DNA from: Candidatus Kaiserbacteria bacterium CG10_big_fil_rev_8_21_14_0_10_47_16
GTDB lineage: Bacteria > Patescibacteriota > Minisyncoccia > Phycocordibacterales > UBA918
NCBI GenBank assembly: GCA_002773395.1
Contig: PFBI01000006.1
Span: 156,657 to 220,656 of the forward strand
Direction of reading: 5' to 3'
Length of the DNA stretch: 64,000 nt
Position numbers and translations under genes: made by a program. Positions 7,160 to 57,088 of this stretch are shown one piece after another. The stretch's first letter is position 1. Each line of letters begins with the position of its first letter. Under the pieces are notes generated by a model that was not told where the DNA came from, made no database searches, and saw nothing but the letters and a program-made list of their open reading frames with translations.

Positions 7160-7504
7160 ATGCCCGATTTTGACCGACATGATCGTATCAATTCAATTCT
7201 CGCAACGCTTGCTGCTGAGTTTATTCGAGTTGAGGCAAACAGTAATCCTCTCATTACGGTAACCCACGTAACTATTTCTCCTGACTATCGCCGCACCACT
7301 ATTGGCTTCACGACCATTCCTGAAGATAAACAGGACGACGCCCTGATTTTTCTAAAGCGAAATGCATCTGAGTTCAGAAATTATATTAAAAAACACGCTC
7401 ACCTGAAGTTTATCCCCCACATTGAATTTGCGATTGATTACGGAGAACGCCACCGCCAACACATAGACGATGTGGTGAGAGATATTGAAGAGGGTAAAAA
7501 ATAA
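7160..7504 (+). CDS. rbfA: ribosome-binding factor A
   Basis: 114 aa immediately after infB (conserved infB-rbfA order); KH-like RbfA pattern (RINSILATLAAEF...VTHVTISPD). Confidence 0.8.
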   Translation: MPDFDRHDRINSILATLAAEFIRVEANSNPLITVTHVTISPDYRRTTIGFTTIPEDKQDDALIFLKRNASEFRNYIKKHAHLKFIPHIEFAIDYGERHRQHIDDVVRDIEEGKK

Positions 7505-7549
7505 TAATACAATCCTACGCCACAGGCGTAGGATTGTATTATTATTTTT
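7503..7549 (+). terminator. rho-independent terminator after rbfA
   Basis: Perfect long stem aatacaatcctacgcc/ggcgtaggattgtatt followed by a T-run. Confidence 0.7.
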
Positions 7550-7741
7550 GTGCGCGGGAGAGGACTTGATTCTTACAGAATCTGTTCAGGCTGCACCACA
7601 AGAGTACTTTGATTTTCTAAAACGCAAGCGTTAAGAAAATCTGGTCGTATGATATTTTTCATACCTCAAAATATCGACAACCTTTTCAAGTCCTCTCCAT
7701 ACAAAGAAACACCAGAGAGACTCTGGTGTTTCTTTACTTTG

Positions 7742-7823
7742 TGCGCGGGAGAGGACTTGAACCTCCACGGATTACTCCACCAGTTCCTAAGACTGGCGCG
7801 GCTACCAATTACGCCACCCGCGC
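7742..7823 (-). tRNA. tRNA-Leu (anticodon TAG), type II with long variable arm
   Basis: Manual cloverleaf on the reverse complement: acceptor GCGCGGG/CCCGCGC, anticodon loop CTTAGGA, long variable arm, T-loop TTCAAGT. Confidence 0.8.
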
Positions 7824-8009
7824 ATATTTGTGACCGGTGCAGAATATCATGATATGCGAGTATCGTCACGGGTTTTGTGTATGTCATCACGAGTCACTAA
7901 GTCGCTACGCTCATAAGTGCTGGCGATCCCGCCTCGTCTGTGGCAAAGCCGCATGACTCCGGCTCGGACAAGCTAAAATCCTGACGCAGGTCAGGATTTT
8001 AAACGCTTG

Positions 8010-8082
8010 TCCGCCCACTAGGACTCGAACCTAGGACCGTCTCGTTAAGAGCGAGCTGCTCTACCAACTGAGCTATGGGCGG
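8010..8082 (-). tRNA. tRNA-Lys (anticodon CTT)
   Basis: Reverse complement folds as CCGCCCA-TA-GCTC AGTTGGTA GAGC-A-GCTCG CTCTTAA CGAGA...CTAGG TTCGAGT CCTAG TGGGCGG A. Confidence 0.8.
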
Positions 8083-8221
8083 GACTGTACCATTGTGACT
8101 GCACTGTGCAGTCTGAGGAGTGCTCTTAATGTTAAGAGCGGTAGATGAGTCTAGTAGACTCATCTACCTCCACCACCTCCGCTATGGGCGGATGTAGGTC
8201 AGAGTGTACTAAATTACACCA

Positions 8222-8305
8222 CCGAAAACAAGCTATATAGTGTGTCTGGGGCGGGGATCGAACCCGCACGGTCTTGCGACCACGAAATTTTAAGTCTCGC
8301 GCGGC
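8222..8305 (-). tRNA. tRNA-Leu (anticodon TAA), type II
   Basis: Reverse complement: acceptor GTCTGGG/CCCAGAC, anticodon loop CTTAAAA, long variable arm TGGTCGCAAGACCGT, T-loop TTCGATC. Confidence 0.8.
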
Positions 8306-8397
8306 TACCAATTACGCCACCCAGACATGCCGAGCATCATATCATATTTCACTTGGTTATGACTCCAATGGATGATAAAGTAATCCTTGTCACAAAC

Positions 8398-8469
8398 GGC
8401 CAGGTGGCGAAGTGGTAACGCTTCGGTTTGCAAAACCGACATGCACGGGTTCGAACCCCGTCCTGGCCT
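8398..8469 (+). tRNA. tRNA-Cys (anticodon GCA)
   Basis: GGCCAGG-TG-GCG AAGTGGTAA CGC-T-TCGGT TTGCAAA ACCGA...ACGGG TTCGAAC CCCGT CCTGGCC T. CCA is not encoded. Confidence 0.8.
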
Positions 8470-8535
8470 CAAACGAAACGGAGTGAAGTGCAGAGGTCAG
8501 GACAAAAGCGACAACAGTCGCTTTTGTTGAGGTTC

Positions 8536-8616
8536 GAACGGCGGAGCGATGTTTTGGCTATTTCTAATGCCAAAACCGCGAGCCGCGTCCAGCATTCTTA
8601 TGAACGTAGTGAATTA
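8536..8616 (+). ncRNA. conserved ~80-nt hairpin element downstream of tRNA-Cys (copy 1 of 2)
   Basis: cggagcgatgttttggctatttctaatgccaaaaccgcgagccg...cttatgaacgtagtgaattag. It is near-identical to 56216-56300. The stem gttttggc/gccaaaac becomes gtttcggc/gccgaaac in copy 2 (compensatory change). Confidence 0.4.
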
Positions 8617-8682
8617 GAAAAAGCGGGACGAACCCCGTCCTGGCCTCAAACGAAAAACTGCCAGTATACTGGCAGTTTTTTG

Positions 8683-9729
8683 TTATCTTTTTATTGAAAG
8701 CCGATTCTTTTTGAATTGCTCTAATTTCTTCTTATGATTGTTCTTAATCAAACGCTTTTTTACAACCTGTGGAAGTGCATCAAACGTCATACATGTGTAT
8801 GAACAATACCCTTTCTTCTTTTCGATACATGCGGAACATCCGATAAACAAGACGTGGCACGCCTGATTTTTGCAGTGGTGATGCGTATCACACTTCTCCT
8901 TCTTGCAAAGATGGCACGTTGCAATAATGTCATTCCCTATCCGTTCCCCAAGTCGCTCATCGAAAACAAAGTTTTTCCCGAGAAACTTATTTGACAATCC
9001 TTCCCGCTGTACTTGGTGCGCGTAGTCGATGATTCCGCCGCGGAGGTGCCGTACGTTTTCAAATCCATTATGCTTCAGCCACGCACTTGCCTTCTCGCAT
9101 CGTATCCCGCCAGTACAATACAGTGCAATCTTTTTATTTTTATGAATCCTGAGTAACTCTGGAGCAATACTGAGTTCCTCACGGAAAGTGTCCACATCAG
9201 GAGTAATCGCATTCTCAAAATGTCCGATCTCGCTTTCGTACGCATTACGCATATCGACAACGACTGCATCAGGATCTTCAATATACGCATTCATCTCACG
9301 AGCGGTGAGATAGTCGCCCGTGTTTGTCACATCAAACGAACGGTCGTCGAGTCCATCAGCCACGATCTTATTTCGGACTTTGATAGTGAGTTTATAGAAC
9401 GAAATAATATCCGCCTCTTCCACTGCAATCTTATAGGGCATGCCGCGGAGTTCTGGGCGGGATTGTACAAACGCATCAAACTGATCCCAGTGCTCAGTTG
9501 GTACGTTCATTTGGGCGTTAATGCCTTCGTGCGCCACATAAATACGCCCCAAGCAGCCAAGTGCCTCGAACCGCTCATAAAGCTCGTCTCGAAACGCTAC
9601 AGGGTCTGCAATGTGTACATACCGGTAAAACGAGAGTGTGGTACGAGAAATAGCTTCACGAATGGCTCGCTCTTTTCGTTCTTTCCGAGAAAGAAACCGT
9701 TGTGGGTTATGATCTATTTTTATATCCAT
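8683..9729 (-). CDS. trhO: rhodanese-domain tRNA uridine(34) hydroxylase (YceA/UPF0176 family)
   Basis: Rhodanese active-site Cys in CTGGIRCEKASAWL plus a C-terminal Cys-rich tail. I place the start at MDIKIDHNP (ATG 9727-9729) rather than the track's 9777. Confidence 0.7.
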   Translation of the reverse strand: MDIKIDHNPQRFLSRKERKERAIREAISRTTLSFYRYVHIADPVAFRDELYERFEALGCLGRIYVAHEGINAQMNVPTEHWDQFDAFVQSRPELRGMPYKIAVEEADIISFYKLTIKVRNKIVADGLDDRSFDVTNTGDYLTAREMNAYIEDPDAVVVDMRNAYESEIGHFENAITPDVDTFREELSIAPELLRIHKNKKIALYCTGGIRCEKASAWLKHNGFENVRHLRGGIIDYAHQVQREGLSNKFLGKNFVFDERLGERIGNDIIATCHLCKKEKCDTHHHCKNQACHVLFIGCSACIEKKKGYCSYTCMTFDALPQVVKKRLIKNNHKKKLEQFKKNRLSIKR

Positions 9730-30951: not shown

Positions 30952-31022
30952 GGAATAATCTCCTTCTTTTCCAATGTTTTTATAGCATATTTGGATAGTT
31001 TGTCAATATACGGTGCTTGGGG

Positions 31023-31367
31023 CCGGGCTCGGTCACGAATCACTAAGTATATTTTTGCTACGCTAAAATATACTTAGTGTTCTCGACCCGTGAAAAGCAA
31101 TTCAATATTGCTTTTCACCACGCCTCCCTCGTCCACAGGACGCGGCGCTCCGGCTTTCGAGCCGAGGCTCGGCGTCTAACTCTAGTTCACTACGTTCACA
31201 AGAGTTACCTGCCCGAGCATTTGAATTCTTGCATTAGAAATAGCAAAAATATACAAATGCTTTTCGAGCCCGACCGTAGGACGCGCCTGCGTCCTACTCC
31301 CCAAGCACACATACACAAAAACCGCCCTGAGGCGGTTTTTGTGTATGTGTGCTTGGGGCCGGGCTCG
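31023..31367. repeat. ~307-bp insert next to tRNA-Phe, flanked by an exact 19-nt direct repeat of the tRNA 3' end (gtgcttggggccgggctcg at 31023-31041 and 31349-31367)
   Basis: The direct repeat is visible in the sequence. The interior is hairpin-dense and includes a 28-bp perfect palindrome at 31299-31358 that incorporates the tRNA acceptor end. Confidence 0.5.
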
Positions 31368-31422
31368 AACCGGCGACCCCTTCCTCTTCAGGGAAATGCT
31401 CTACCAACTGAGCTACCCAAGC
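31350..31422 (-). tRNA. tRNA-Phe (anticodon GAA)
   Basis: Reverse complement: GCTTGGG-TA-GCTC AGTTGGTA GAGC-A-TTTCC CTGAAGA GGAAG-GGGTC-GCCGG TTCGAGC CCGGC CCCAAGC A. Confidence 0.8.
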
Positions 31423-40000: not shown

Positions 40001-41389
40001 CTAAGATGCAATTGGAAGATTCGGTGGTGCTTCGCTTCGTGTTGACGGAATACGACCGACAGTCGGTGTGGTAACGACCTTGCCTGGAATATGGAATATT
40101 GTCGCAAGCTCCTCTGTCGTCATTATTTTCTTTCCATCCTTCGCTCCTCGCTGGGAGTATGACCGAAGTTTATACTCACGAAGCTCATCCTTCTTCCACG
40201 CCTGCTTCTTGCGACCACTCGGATCTTGCCACCAGTTCCAGTCATAGTCAGTGCGCCACCGCACGCCAAGCGCGTTGCGATTAATGTCGTCATATCCACG
40301 CCACGAAGTAATGAGCGAACCAATACGCTCCCCTGGCGTATACGCTTCGTTGGTCGCAATGTACATACCTCGAATAGCCACGTTAAACGCGTTCTTACCA
40401 AGACTTCGCTCCACTGCCTTAATAGTGTCTTTTTCGGTATCGGTAAGCTGCTGCATCACATTGCCTCCCGCATTTTCACCTGCACGCTTCTGAGCATCTG
40501 CAATCATCTTTTGAATAAAGGCATTCGCGGCAGGCTTCCAGTCTGATTGCTTCGTAAGCGACCCTTCCTTGAAACCGACATCTCGGTTTGCATCGATGAG
40601 AATCTGCGCCCAAAAATATTCGCCAGGACCAATCGCAGCAAACGGCTCGAGCATAGTGGTGATTGGATCAATTTTTTCTTCTTCCTTCGGCATAGTGTGC
40701 ATGCCGTATTCAATATATGTTTTGAGCGGCAATGCATCATCTTTCTTAAGATTGAAGTGGAGTGAGAAGTAGCTAAATCGACTCGGGTCCCACGGAATTT
40801 CTGACGTGTAATCCACATCAAGTTCAATCATTTCAACACCCGGATACTGCGAATAGAAACCTGCCTCTGCAATATTCTTAAATTTCTTCCGTGGGACATT
40901 AATATAGAAACGTACATCGCCACCTCGTGAAACAATTTCAAGACTGGTGACCGGAGGATGTTTTCCGTCCCAATACGTCTGGATATGGTTGTCCGGTGCA
41001 GCCGTTTGGTGGAGCTGATTGAGAATAAGCTCCATTACTTCTGGTGATTTAAATACTTCCTGCGGAATACGAATTTCGAGCGTAACTCTCCCCTGCTTCA
41101 GGTCAAACTCTCGTCGCACAAATTCAAGCCAGTACTCATAAAAAAGACCGAATGTAATGACGGGAAGCCATACTGGTGACGTAATGAGTATGATCTTTAC
41201 GGTCGCACTCGAAGATACATCGAGTGTAAAAAAAGCTGCACCGATCGCAATAATACCCAGCACCACCAATATGATGCCGCCGTTTGCTCCGAGATCCTCT
41301 AGTTTACTGAGCATGTGTACACATTGTATCGTAAAATCCCCGTGGATGCGCAAAAACGTCGGGAATAACGACACCTGACCTTTGCGCAC
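40001..41389 (-). CDS. hypothetical membrane protein (N-terminal TM pair, about 380-aa soluble domain), unknown family
   Basis: 462 aa; no recognizable catalytic motif and no Walker A; stop lies 1 nt before the mltG start. Confidence 0.45.
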   Translation of the reverse strand: MRKGQVSLFPTFLRIHGDFTIQCVHMLSKLEDLGANGGIILVVLGIIAIGAAFFTLDVSSSATVKIILITSPVWLPVITFGLFYEYWLEFVRREFDLKQGRVTLEIRIPQEVFKSPEVMELILNQLHQTAAPDNHIQTYWDGKHPPVTSLEIVSRGGDVRFYINVPRKKFKNIAEAGFYSQYPGVEMIELDVDYTSEIPWDPSRFSYFSLHFNLKKDDALPLKTYIEYGMHTMPKEEEKIDPITTMLEPFAAIGPGEYFWAQILIDANRDVGFKEGSLTKQSDWKPAANAFIQKMIADAQKRAGENAGGNVMQQLTDTEKDTIKAVERSLGKNAFNVAIRGMYIATNEAYTPGERIGSLITSWRGYDDINRNALGVRWRTDYDWNWWQDPSGRKKQAWKKDELREYKLRSYSQRGAKDGKKIMTTEELATIFHIPGKVVTTPTVGRIPSTRSEAPPNLPIAS

Positions 41390-56099: not shown

Positions 56100-56170
56100 G
56101 CGGCCATGGTTAAGTGGTATAACGAGTCCTTGCCAAGGATTAGTCGGGAGTTCGATTCTCCCTGGCCGCA
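56100..56170 (+). tRNA. tRNA-Gly (anticodon GCC)
   Basis: GCGGCCA...AGTCC TTGCCAA GGATT...GGGAG TTCGATT CTCCC TGGCCGC A. Promoter TTGCAT-N17-TATAAT about 30 nt upstream. Confidence 0.8.
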
Positions 56171-56215
56171 CAAACGCGTTAAAAAGACCTCCCCTGCGGG
56201 AGGTCTTTAGCGTTT

Positions 56216-56300
56216 GTGAGCCGGAGCGATGTTTCGGCTATTCCTAATGCCGAAACCGCGAGGCCGGGGAGGAAGTGCTTATGAGCGTAAGCGAATTAGC
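56216..56300 (+). ncRNA. conserved ~80-nt hairpin element downstream of tRNA-Gly (copy 2 of 2)
   Basis: ccggagcgatgtttcggctattcctaatgccgaaaccgcgaggccg...cttatgagcgtaagcgaattag; preceded by a long terminator hairpin (56176-56214). Confidence 0.4.
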
Positions 56301-56338
56301 AACTTGACCCCAATATAGAAAACGTGTGACCCATCCTT

Positions 56339-57088
56339 CTAAATATTTTTCAACGTTTTTTCTCTCAGCTCTTCGTTTTTTCTCTCTAAAGTAGAATACT
56401 TTTCTTTAAAGTCACTACATAATGTAACTAAAGGGTAGTCCTCTACAGCACGATTTACTAAACCCAAAATACCAATTCCTAGATTTGCAGTCATCCAAAG
56501 ATCGGCTTTGTAGTATTTCTCATCTACTACCTCAAAAAATGACACGCTGAATTTACCCTCATTAGTTACCTTCACACCTCTCCACGCATCGATGATATTT
56601 GCATGAACAGATTGAAGCGACGCCCTTTCTTTAAACCCCTTGAGAGAAGAGCTTCCAACTGGATACTGCGCACTCAGCCAGTTGAACATTTTTGTCCTTA
56701 ATTTATCGGACGCTTCAAAAACCCCATTTTTACTCTTTTTTGCAAATTTTCCATGCTCATCAGGGTGAGCTAGGGCAAAAATAGCCCACGCACCAGCTTC
56801 TGAAGCTTGGCGTATATTGAACGCCGTTTGAGATCGATGACGACGGATACTCGAGAGCGCAGCCAACATCAAGTGTTTCTGAGCGAACGAAAAGAAGGTG
56901 ATGAAAATATGAGCATTCTTTCCAGTGTCAACTATTGAAGAGTTCATAAAATTAAAAACTTCCTGAGTATGGATATATAACTCAGTATTTCTAACATCAG
57001 TCTGCATTAATATTTTATTTTCAGTCTCTGCCATCAAAAGTATGTGGTCTGGACTTGAAATAAATAATCTTTTAATTCTGTTCCACAT
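56339..57088 (-). CDS. hypothetical protein, AT-rich orphan gene adjacent to tRNA-Gly
   Basis: 249 aa, no recognizable domain; local GC is visibly lower than the flanks. Confidence 0.45.
   Translation of the reverse strand: MWNRIKRLFISSPDHILLMAETENKILMQTDVRNTELYIHTQEVFNFMNSSIVDTGKNAHIFITFFSFAQKHLMLAALSSIRRHRSQTAFNIRQASEAGAWAIFALAHPDEHGKFAKKSKNGVFEASDKLRTKMFNWLSAQYPVGSSSLKGFKERASLQSVHANIIDAWRGVKVTNEGKFSVSFFEVVDEKYYKADLWMTANLGIGILGLVNRAVEDYPLVTLCSDFKEKYSTLERKNEELREKTLKNI

Follow-up and report, generated by a model that had tools for sequence, protein, structure and literature searches.

What kind of element lies past the tRNA-Cys gene, and again past a tRNA-Gly gene, of Candidatus Kaiserbacteria bacterium CG10_big_fil_rev_8_21_14_0_10_47_16? 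The question was raised by a 64,000-nucleotide (nt) stretch of this genome (the window; contig PFBI01000006.1 of assembly GCA_002773395.1, positions 156,657 to 220,656), for which an original prediction, made from the letters alone, had described two similar blocks of about 80 nt downstream of the two tRNA genes and had proposed that they are a small structured RNA, a recombinase recognition site or the terminus of a tRNA-targeting element. We called tRNA genes with ARAGORN, also applied the Rfam tRNA model, and compared the window with 118 fetched genome loci of 8 kb (L numbers below), mostly from Patescibacteria. With a probability of roughly one half, the blocks belong to a small non-coding, non-autonomous insertion element that acts at the DNA level and is specific for the 3' part of tRNA genes, at the T-loop; small mobile elements of this kind have apparently not been described.

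The similarity of the two blocks is real: positions 8543-8582 and 56223-56262 are identical at 37 of 40 positions, and one degenerate 40-nt pattern fits both with 0 mismatches (0 matches expected, 100 shuffles). Direct reading of the sequence recovered the stem-loops quoted for them (gttttggc/gccaaaac and gtttcggc/gccgaaac) and the claimed compensatory pair, in which T/C in the 5' arm is matched by A/G in the 3' arm; the third difference is T/C in the loop. Both blocks lie past a same-strand tRNA gene and an intervening hairpin, as described, with gaps of 72 nt from the end of tRNA-Cys (8470) and 51 nt from the end of tRNA-Gly (56171). The extent of about 80 nt was too short: the similarity runs on to CTTATGA[A/G]CGTA(A)G[T/C]GAATTAG (8597-8617 and 56278-56299), a box of 21 nt, and the element is therefore longer than 80 nt. 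A third match had been reported inside the tRNA-Phe-associated insert as degenerate and in reverse orientation. It is present there on the minus strand, but it is exact (14 of 14), lies at 31231-31244 instead of 31227-31240 and belongs to a full copy. Since tRNA-Phe itself is on the minus strand, this copy is oriented to its tRNA like the others. The 27-nt direct repeat at tRNA-Cys, a copy at tRNA-Lys, a tandem copy at tRNA-Phe and a different insert at tRNA-Leu(tag) had gone unnoticed.

The blocks turned out to be one arm, P2, of a core that forms a three-way junction: a GGCGGAG junction is followed by P2, by CGAG and by a second arm, P3, capped by the 21-nt box CTTRTGARCGTAGYGAMYTAG, and a stem P1 closes the structure. 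The core is about 95-130 nt long, and its copies are uniform in size (~110-125 nt). The box folds as a hairpin with the pairs C-G, T-A, T.T, R-Y, T-A, G.A, A.G, R-Y and C-G around a GTA loop, and the base of P2 carries a tandem G.A motif and covarying steps. In an unfitted MAFFT alignment of 49 copies, 82% of the cells of the three-way junction are paired, versus 64% after shuffling and 33-44% in slid controls; cells changed on both sides number 316, a value reached in 0 of 500 shuffles (118 in shuffled data). When the test was repeated on 131 matches aligned to a covariance model of the core (R1), 86% of the cells were paired versus 60%, and again 0 of 500 shuffles reached the observed value. 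P1 is paired in 68-76% of cases, and all 8 of its pairs show changes on both sides. Selection on secondary structure, which had been proposed from a single pair, is thus strongly supported far past that pair. The DNA fold of the Cys element has a z-score of -4.65, and top and bottom strands fold about equally well as DNA. Two other readings of the conserved motifs were rejected. A coding mini-open reading frame in the box (MNVVN*/MSVAN*) has no ribosome-binding site, and the variation tracks base pairing (A-T with G-C) and not codons; a box C/D or K-turn does not fit tandem G.A pairs that lie in a continuous helix without a 3-nt bulge.

The search across genomes that had been suggested with the prediction yielded 131 R1 matches in 99 loci and the window. 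The box pattern by itself occurs in more than 118 loci of a species-representative genome collection, versus about 9 expected by chance (an estimate from pattern degeneracy and collection size), most of them in Paceibacteria, Saccharibacteria, Kaiserbacteria and related groups. We took the 86 R1 matches of at least 45 bits and recorded the nearest tRNA gene within 300 nt. For 52 matches this gene lies upstream on the same strand, for 6 downstream on the same strand and for 1 on the opposite strand, while 27 have none. Another 27 full-length matches lack the exact box and so owe nothing to the box search pattern; a same-strand tRNA gene precedes 23 of them at a distance of up to 435 nt. At least 16 tRNA species are involved. 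Many further copies, covariation that holds and an association with tRNA genes are the opposite of what had been named beforehand as grounds for giving the prediction up.

The flanks of the core are derived from the tRNA gene next to it, and they are well seen at tRNA-Cys(GCA) (8398-8470, plus strand like all Cys features; ARAGORN, and 67 bits with the Rfam tRNA model), where an insert of about 150 nt is bracketed by a perfect 27-nt direct repeat. Its first copy (DR1, 8452-8478) runs from the T-loop (CGAAC...) to the tRNA 3' end and 8 nt of the trailer; the second (DR2, 8629-8655) is a displaced direct copy of the tRNA-Cys 3' part and forms the closing stem P1 with an inverted copy. The latter is in two parts. 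The segment gaggtcaggac (8493-8503) is the reverse complement, at 10 of 11 positions, of gtcctggcctc in the T-stem and acceptor 3' strand and pairs with DR1 in the DNA fold, and aggttcgaac (8530-8539) is the complement of the T-loop region, with TCGAAC at the core boundary. They are split by the hairpin aaaagcgac-aaca-gtcgctttt (8504-8525), the one originally taken for a terminator. The copy itself (R1, 94 bits at 8525-8644) comprises the P2 arm (8540-8584), with a GGC/GCC base, the tandem G.A (G-GA/GA), a GCG/CGC step, the stem quoted above and the loop tatttctaat (covariation at alignment pairs 19:69, 20:68 and 26:63), and the P3 arm (8585-8629) with the box cttatgaacgtagtgaattag at 8597-8617. 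In the hairpin formed by this box, a T.T mismatch and tandem G.A pairs lie below a C-GTA-G triloop, and the pairs covary by A-T to G-C swaps. An intrinsic terminator (8656-8684) follows DR2.

The same order was found in the fetched loci: an intact tRNA gene, its trailer and terminator, a copy of the trailer and tRNA 3' part that is inverted and ends in ...TCGAA, the core, and a direct copy from CGA... onwards, with or without trailer and terminator. The core always sits at the junction of the inverted and the direct copy of the 3' segment, and the breakpoint is in the T-loop palindrome TTCGA(A). The direct repeat starts 10-11 nt past the box and always in the T-loop (at C56, sometimes T55; C[GA]A.TCC in the fetched loci). 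Its left edge is fixed and its right edge variable, giving lengths of 7-67 nt, and in L012 and L016 it spans the trailer and the entire tRNA terminator. Duplication of the 3' segment leaves the tRNA gene intact after insertion. The inverted copy is the reverse complement of the local tRNA segment and ends in ...TCGAA(C/A); in the well-preserved cases (L002, L063, L024 and L129) it passes the acceptor strand and the trailer up to the centre of the terminator hairpin, so that the region from T-loop to core is a single long palindrome centred on the terminator. Together, the inverted and direct copies form P1. A degenerate tRNA holding the core in its T-loop was rejected, since asymmetric T-loops are represented in the left flank by their reverse complement (AATCGAA for TTCGATT) and not by the sense sequence. 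The inverted tRNA copy is often interrupted by a conserved mini-hairpin, with the consensus gcaagcaaaCTGCtttgcttgc or with any stem around a CTGC loop (L063, L012, L016, L051, L066, L070, L095 and others). In L002 the hairpin at this place has the loop CTTC and a 2-nt AG duplication on its flanks. Such mini-hairpins may be separate tiny insertions.

What spreads was read from cores at different tRNA genes. In a subfamily with the P2 sequence GGCGGTATACAAGAC..., the cores at tRNA-Leu(gag), tRNA-His and tRNA-Ser are 74-82% identical, and the 15-nt inverted flank past TTCGA matches its own tRNA at 73-100% of positions and other tRNAs at 33-60%. Likewise, the L095 copies at tRNA-Cys and tRNA-Leu(tag) are near-identical over about 60 nt, beginning exactly at TCGAAAGACGG, and locus-specific outside. 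Both flanks thus match the local tRNA and not the core lineage, and the spreading unit is therefore the core alone. Some pairs at different tRNA genes of one genome are more alike than 99% of the pairs between genomes, which suggests spread within genomes.

Presence, absence or replacement of the element at the same tRNA gene varies among related genomes. The TrhO protein encoded next to the tRNA-Cys site of the window is 100% identical to one that NCBI lists under Candidatus Parcubacteria, and the host is of the Parcubacteria type. In L124, whose TrhO is 81% identical, the tRNA-Cys site is empty: the terminator directly follows the tRNA gene, 30 nt from trhO, and the window has 177 nt more there. 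L122 (TrhO 75% identical) shares four tRNA genes with the window and has the element only at tRNA-Cys; its tRNA-Lys and tRNA-Leu sites are empty, with 35 nt from tRNA-Lys to the next tRNA. The four tRNA genes (Leu-tag, Lys, Leu-taa, Cys) that separate rbfA from trhO form a block whose orientation in L122 (5024-5755) is, as a whole, the reverse of that in the window (7500-8700). At the orthologous tRNA-Gly of L129 (AtpB 76% identical), we found a different core subfamily with another junction type and a 16-nt inverted copy reaching the T-loop. Tandem copies occur at tRNA-Phe in the window and in L098. Polymorphism within the population was not seen, as the contigs with an identical TrhO protein are all 100% identical to the window.

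The heaviest rival of a DNA element is a structured non-coding RNA, which we hold to be unlikely; it might be a tRNA-like mini-helix whose P1 mimics the T-stem and acceptor 3' strand of the neighbouring tRNA and so would share its 3' processing, CCA addition or protein partners, or an RNA guiding the mobility of the element. Strong covariation and conserved loops would be expected of such a molecule, its orientation is always that of the tRNA, a terminator follows DR2, and tandem G.A motifs are frequent in RNA; two boxes have a GTAA loop, and G.T exceeds A.C (12 versus 4) in the cleanest helices. Among the 49 copies within 120 nt of their tRNA gene, however, a canonical terminator (a hairpin, then at least 5 T in 8 nt) stands between tRNA and core in 35, and a 4-T tail in 4 more; with only about 15-40 nt left before P1 there is no room for a promoter. 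The P2 tips of 66 copies are pyrimidine-rich loops (YTTCCTAR) or C-GNA-G triloops, and none is GNRA or UNCG. The small structured RNA of the original prediction is disfavoured on both counts. C-GNA-G tips would suit DNA, for which Hirao and colleagues reportedly described d(GCGNAGC) as an unusually stable mini-hairpin. The element belongs to no Rfam 15 family: only tRNAs pass the gathering score in the window, and at up to E = 10 both copies give matches at chance level. Direct repeats that reach into trailer and terminator are unneeded for tRNA mimicry, sites are empty or replaced in relatives, and the flanks are arranged alike around a second core that is unrelated to the first.

Next in weight stand scars of classical double-stranded integrative islands or prophages of the tyrosine or serine recombinase type, either attL/attR scars or remnants like cis-mobilizable elements (CIMEs), in which the block would be the arm region of attP. 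Such an origin, quite improbable in our view, would account for direct repeats from the T-loop to the tRNA 3' end, which Williams in 2002 is said to have given as the signature of T-loop-type integrase sites, and for the arrays with larger islands between tRNA and mini-element (large serine recombinase in L051 and L093; Shedu; AbiEii). An attP arm, however, needs no three-way junction with compensatory changes, and an inverted target copy is foreign to the anatomy of attL and attR; nor would relics be so uniform in size. No integrase-bearing forms of intermediate length were seen, recombinases make up 2 of 150 flanking open reading frames (ORFs), and the box occurs in 1 of 2.9 million viral contigs. 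Slightly less weight still goes to a process without dedicated machinery, namely template switching at the terminator and T-arm palindromes (as in tandem inversion duplication), with the core copied between loci or cells, by DNA uptake, through recombination on T-loop microhomology. The inverted segment from the T-loop to the terminator-hairpin centre in L002, L063 and L129, the direct repeats that hold an entire terminator and the lack of nearby recombinase genes agree with it, but each genome would require switching in several steps, repeated at dozens of its tRNA genes, foreign junction DNA is not typical of tandem inversion duplications, and a near-invariant box and loops that are conserved across phyla suggest that a protein recognises them. 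The last in the order, a retroelement like a short interspersed nuclear element, is very improbable: a transcript with a tRNA-like 3' end would be inserted by target-primed reverse transcription from a nick in the T-loop, in keeping with the fixed left and variable right edge (7-67 nt) of the direct repeats and with the tRNA-like end of P1. Terminators lie upstream of the core, no reverse transcriptase was found among the neighbouring ORFs scanned, and target-primed reverse transcription leaves the inverted target copy unexplained.

The small DNA-level insertion element remains our preferred reading, at about even odds. Its working form would be folded single-stranded DNA, in which the inverted and direct copies pair into P1. 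P2 and P3 would carry very stable mini-hairpins of the DNA type, with C-GNA-G triloops beside tandem G.A pairs, and the conserved loops (YTTCCTAR and the box) could serve as recognition points for a trans-acting enzyme encoded elsewhere. Insertion would be coupled to copying of the target strand outward from the T-loop on both sides, either by target-primed synthesis or by template switching at the T-loop and terminator palindromes. More tentatively, the element may stand for a new class of mobile DNA: a gene-less, hairpin-only element of about 100 nt that moves as a folded single strand and homes to the universally conserved tRNA T-loop, where the target 3' segment is copied to both sides, inverted and direct, the tRNA is left intact and the element becomes the loop of a target-derived stem, by an undescribed chemistry or by hijacking host enzymes. 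Small non-autonomous elements at tRNA genes are a known kind, and with a similarly modest likelihood the insertion mechanism is new. Among the identities originally proposed, the terminus of a tRNA-targeting element came closest, although the block makes up the body of a miniature element and not the end of a larger one; a recombinase recognition site is possible for the box and the loops, with no recombinase linked to them.

Several points weigh against this reading. The insertion chemistry is pure inference, as no enzyme, excised form or insertion event was observed, and the closest relatives are only 76-81% identical in protein and offer no exact pre-insertion sequences. The class II copies, to which the Gly and Lys copies of the window belong, have a palindrome around the terminator only and no recognisable direct copy, so that one scheme does not fit all copies. 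The Cys element (8525-8644, plus strand) and the Lys element (7870-7978, minus strand) lie on opposite strands about 500 nt apart, and a strict dependence on the lagging-strand template therefore fails. Mismatches point clearly to neither DNA nor RNA: G.T and A.C number 77 and 86 overall, but 12 and 4 if only the best-aligned helices are counted. RNA, too, typically has tandem G.A pairs and three-way junctions, and the GTAA box loop of two copies is of the GNRA type. Finally, vertical inheritance and a function for the host could explain copies at the same tRNA in different species, such as those at tRNA-Val(tac) in L002, L036 and L048.

Inserts of this type are present at 5 of the 6 tRNA genes of the window; they are 150-330 nt long and contain no ORF. 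R1 finds four clear copies and a weak one, at tRNA-Cys, tRNA-Gly, tRNA-Lys and tRNA-Phe (two at Phe). At tRNA-Gly(GCC) (56100-56171, plus strand; ARAGORN and Rfam), a long palindrome (56169-56218) consists of cacaaacgc, a terminator hairpin with the loop ctgc and gcgtttgtg; the last tRNA bases are in its 5' arm, and its outer arms are also present in the relative L129. The core of this copy follows on the same strand (56220-56311; R1, 90.9 bits), with P2 at 56220-56264, P3 at 56265-56311 and the box, with a GTAA loop, at 56278-56299; no DR2 was found when repeats of the 3' end of tRNA-Gly were looked for. The Lys copy (7870-8013, minus strand) lies downstream of tRNA-Lys(CTT) (8009-8082) and has the palindrome cggacaagc...gcttgtccg (8013-7965), then the core (R1, 64.8 bits at 7870-7978) with the box at 7897-7917. 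The insert at tRNA-Phe (31349-31422, minus strand) measures about 320 nt and holds two tandem elements; 19 nt of the tRNA 3' end are repeated on either side of it (31349-31367 and 31013-31031). The first, Phe-A (31156-31367), has DR1 at 31349-31367 and an inverted copy split between 31299-31307 and 31263-31272; R1 gives 63.8 bits at 31156-31276, the P2 loop gctatttctaatgc at 31231-31244 is the third match discussed above, and the box is at 31182-31202. The second, Phe-B (31013-31164), is degenerate: an inverted copy cggctcgaaag (31154-31164) and a GGAG junction are followed by a long P3 capped by GCGTAGC (31053-31067), and R1 scores 12.4 bits (E = 0.15) at 31025-31144.

The insert at tRNA-Leu(TAG) (7741-7823, minus strand) represents another family, B, and scores only 7 bits with R1. 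It spans 7547-7760 and has 23-nt direct repeats (7738-7760 and 7547-7569), a terminator and the inverted copy ggagaggacttgaa (7685-7698). The family B core is unrelated to the R1 core and ends in ...cctgaacagattctgtaagaa(t), while the layout is otherwise identical: direct repeat, terminator, inverted copy ending in TTGAA/TCGAA, core, direct repeat. The family also occurs at tRNA-Leu(TAA) of the relative L124 (3315-3493); the window has no insert at its tRNA-Leu(taa).

The genes around the elements are ordinary ones. The ORFs scanned in the window are housekeeping genes, and among 150 ORFs flanking elements in 30 loci of the candidate phyla radiation (CPR), L19, pseudouridine synthase, FtsA/FtsZ, UppS and similar families are the commonest. 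The two recombinases among them are resolvases, and the 25 most frequent Pfam families include no integrase or transposase; no TnpA (Y1 HUH) gene appears among the ORFs scanned in the window and the 8-kb loci. Two ORFs of the window, of 249 and 462 amino acids (56339-57088 and 40001-41389, both minus strand), have no Pfam match; the former comes next downstream of the tRNA-Gly element. Where a copy has no tRNA close by, it sits past a larger island that carries Shedu, AbiEii, a UvrD-like helicase or a large serine recombinase. In our reading, these islands inserted later into the same tRNA hot spot and displaced the older elements outward. Islands with a large serine recombinase were seen at tRNA 3' ends in Saccharibacteria and Paceibacteria (L051 658-7090; L093 589-1869); that of L051, 6.1 kb between tRNA-Met and the mini-element, has its own short repeat ccgcaacaata. 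A recombinase linked to the element was rejected, since large serine recombinases occur in these two islands and are absent from most loci. Defence genes (Shedu SduA and the AbiEii toxin; L081 3555-4589, L084 3693-5096) stand just upstream of mini-elements that lost their adjacent tRNA, which suggests that defence islands accumulate at the same hot spots.

Outside the CPR, the box alone forms the tip of simple hairpins within other palindromic repeats, in Alphaproteobacteria and a few other lineages. In Sphingomonadales and Rhizobiales it stands solitary in palindromic repeats between genes (ccctctccc..gggagaggg, stem-box-stem, ggtgagggg; L009, L021, L033, L034, L045, L055, L102 and others), and it is also seen directly after tRNA-Gln and tRNA-Arg in other phyla and once in a viral contig (the loci other than the alphaproteobacterial ones are L008, L052 and L119, 3193-3213). 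In a plasmid collection, the alphaproteobacterial repeat with the box matched only unannotated Sphingomonas DNA. The single box among the viral contigs is a lone hairpin, and a phage origin was rejected on this rarity. Full elements of the CPR type are also present in metagenome-assembled genomes labelled Patiriisocius (Bacteroidota; L047, L064, L068 and L071) and Azotimanducaceae (Gammaproteobacteria; L030), by either horizontal spread or mis-binning of CPR contigs.

The presence of a gene-less structured element at most tRNA genes of highly streamlined CPR genomes means either a very successful parasite or something that serves the cell. To our knowledge, a core between inverted and direct target copies fits no standard product of transposition or integration, and its layout could thereby disclose how DNA is inserted, by a route new to science, at a site that is universally conserved; homing to the T-loop without destruction of the tRNA gene would also be of interest as a targeting tool. 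In practice, the repeats break assemblies and can mislead the annotation of tRNAs and islands in metagenome-assembled CPR genomes. In this organism and its closest relative, contigs end within or beside tRNA-linked elements (L127, L128, L130 and L131), and the L129 contig ends inside the core (1-30, in the P2 tip), as expected of a repeat; such repeats fragment short-read assemblies.

No description of the element was found in the literature searched, which was useful for a hairpin tip shared with pC194 and the Cycas Bpu repeats and for motifs of ssoA origins. T-loop-class integrative elements and CIMEs resemble it in their insertion at the tRNA 3' end, in tandem accretion at one tRNA and in a direct repeat that starts in the T-loop and restores the 3' end, as is found here at tRNA-Cys (27 nt) and tRNA-Phe (19 nt). 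Unlike them, the present element is gene-less, has no linked integrase or cargo, and has a covarying folded core with an inverted target copy opposite. MITEs (miniature transposable elements with inverted repeats) and the repetitive extragenic palindromic (REP) and bacterial interspersed mosaic (BIME) repeats are likewise short, non-coding, multi-copy and hairpin-forming, vary in presence and break assemblies, but here the inverted repeats are target copies and not element-borne ends shared by all copies, the repeats of 7-67 nt are no short target-site duplication of fixed length, and the T-loop target is strict. We know of no insertion sequence that could be the parent of this tRNA mini-element.

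Folded DNA origins of rolling-circle plasmids offer a further parallel. Those of the ssoA type are heavily folded, orientation-specific DNA of about 120-160 nt with a TAGCG(A/T) hexamer at a hairpin tip. Where ssoA has this CS-6 motif (TAGCGT/A) in a terminal loop, the box tip reads GTAGCGA in G-type copies but GTAGTGA in A-type copies, including Cys. The ssoA origins differ in residing on a rolling-circle replicon, not a chromosome, and in RS_B (TTATGCCGAGAAAATTT), which is present in pC194 and has 0 matches in the window at up to 3 mismatches; as R1 also misses the pC194 ssoA, homology was rejected. The 13-nt tip TGAGCGTAGCGAA recurs at the end of a hairpin beside the double-strand (rolling-circle) origin of pC194 (PMC7072734), and 12 of its 13 nt (TGAGCGTAGCGA) are at the centre of the Bpu repeats of Cycas mitochondria (PMC8297867); we count these occurrences in favour of DNA over RNA. 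In pC194 (L125, 1010-1040, minus strand), the hairpin aaaggattt-GAGCGTAGCGA-aaaatccttt is immediately 5' of the double-strand-origin nick region, on the displaced strand and apart from ssoA (RS_B at 2189-2205). Both contexts are unrelated to that of the element and have no tRNA link, Bpu being a 36-nt unit with AAGG repeats, and the shared tip is probably convergence on a very stable DNA mini-hairpin.

Systems that integrate single-stranded DNA come near in form. Both CTX-phi attP(+) and integron attC are orientation-specific, and folding of their inverted repeats yields a duplex resembling the target; CTX-phi even shares the integrated order of site, spacer, inverted site, body and site. Here, however, the arms are target-derived and not element-borne, which contradicts a simple model with arms carried by the element; the body is about 100 nt, and there are no dif/XerCD or GTTRRRY boxes, attC boxes and dif having been rejected on inspection for misfit of order and sequence. 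Single-strand transposition of the IS200/IS605 type differs in its orientation to replication, which is not fixed here, as elements on opposite strands about 500 nt apart demonstrate. Tandem inversion duplications share the succession of direct, inverted and direct segments and the junctions at natural palindromes (L002, L063, L024 and L129). In contrast to them, the segments here measure tens of bases and not kilobases, one junction holds a conserved foreign core of about 100 nt, and the arrangement recurs at many loci and in many genomes.

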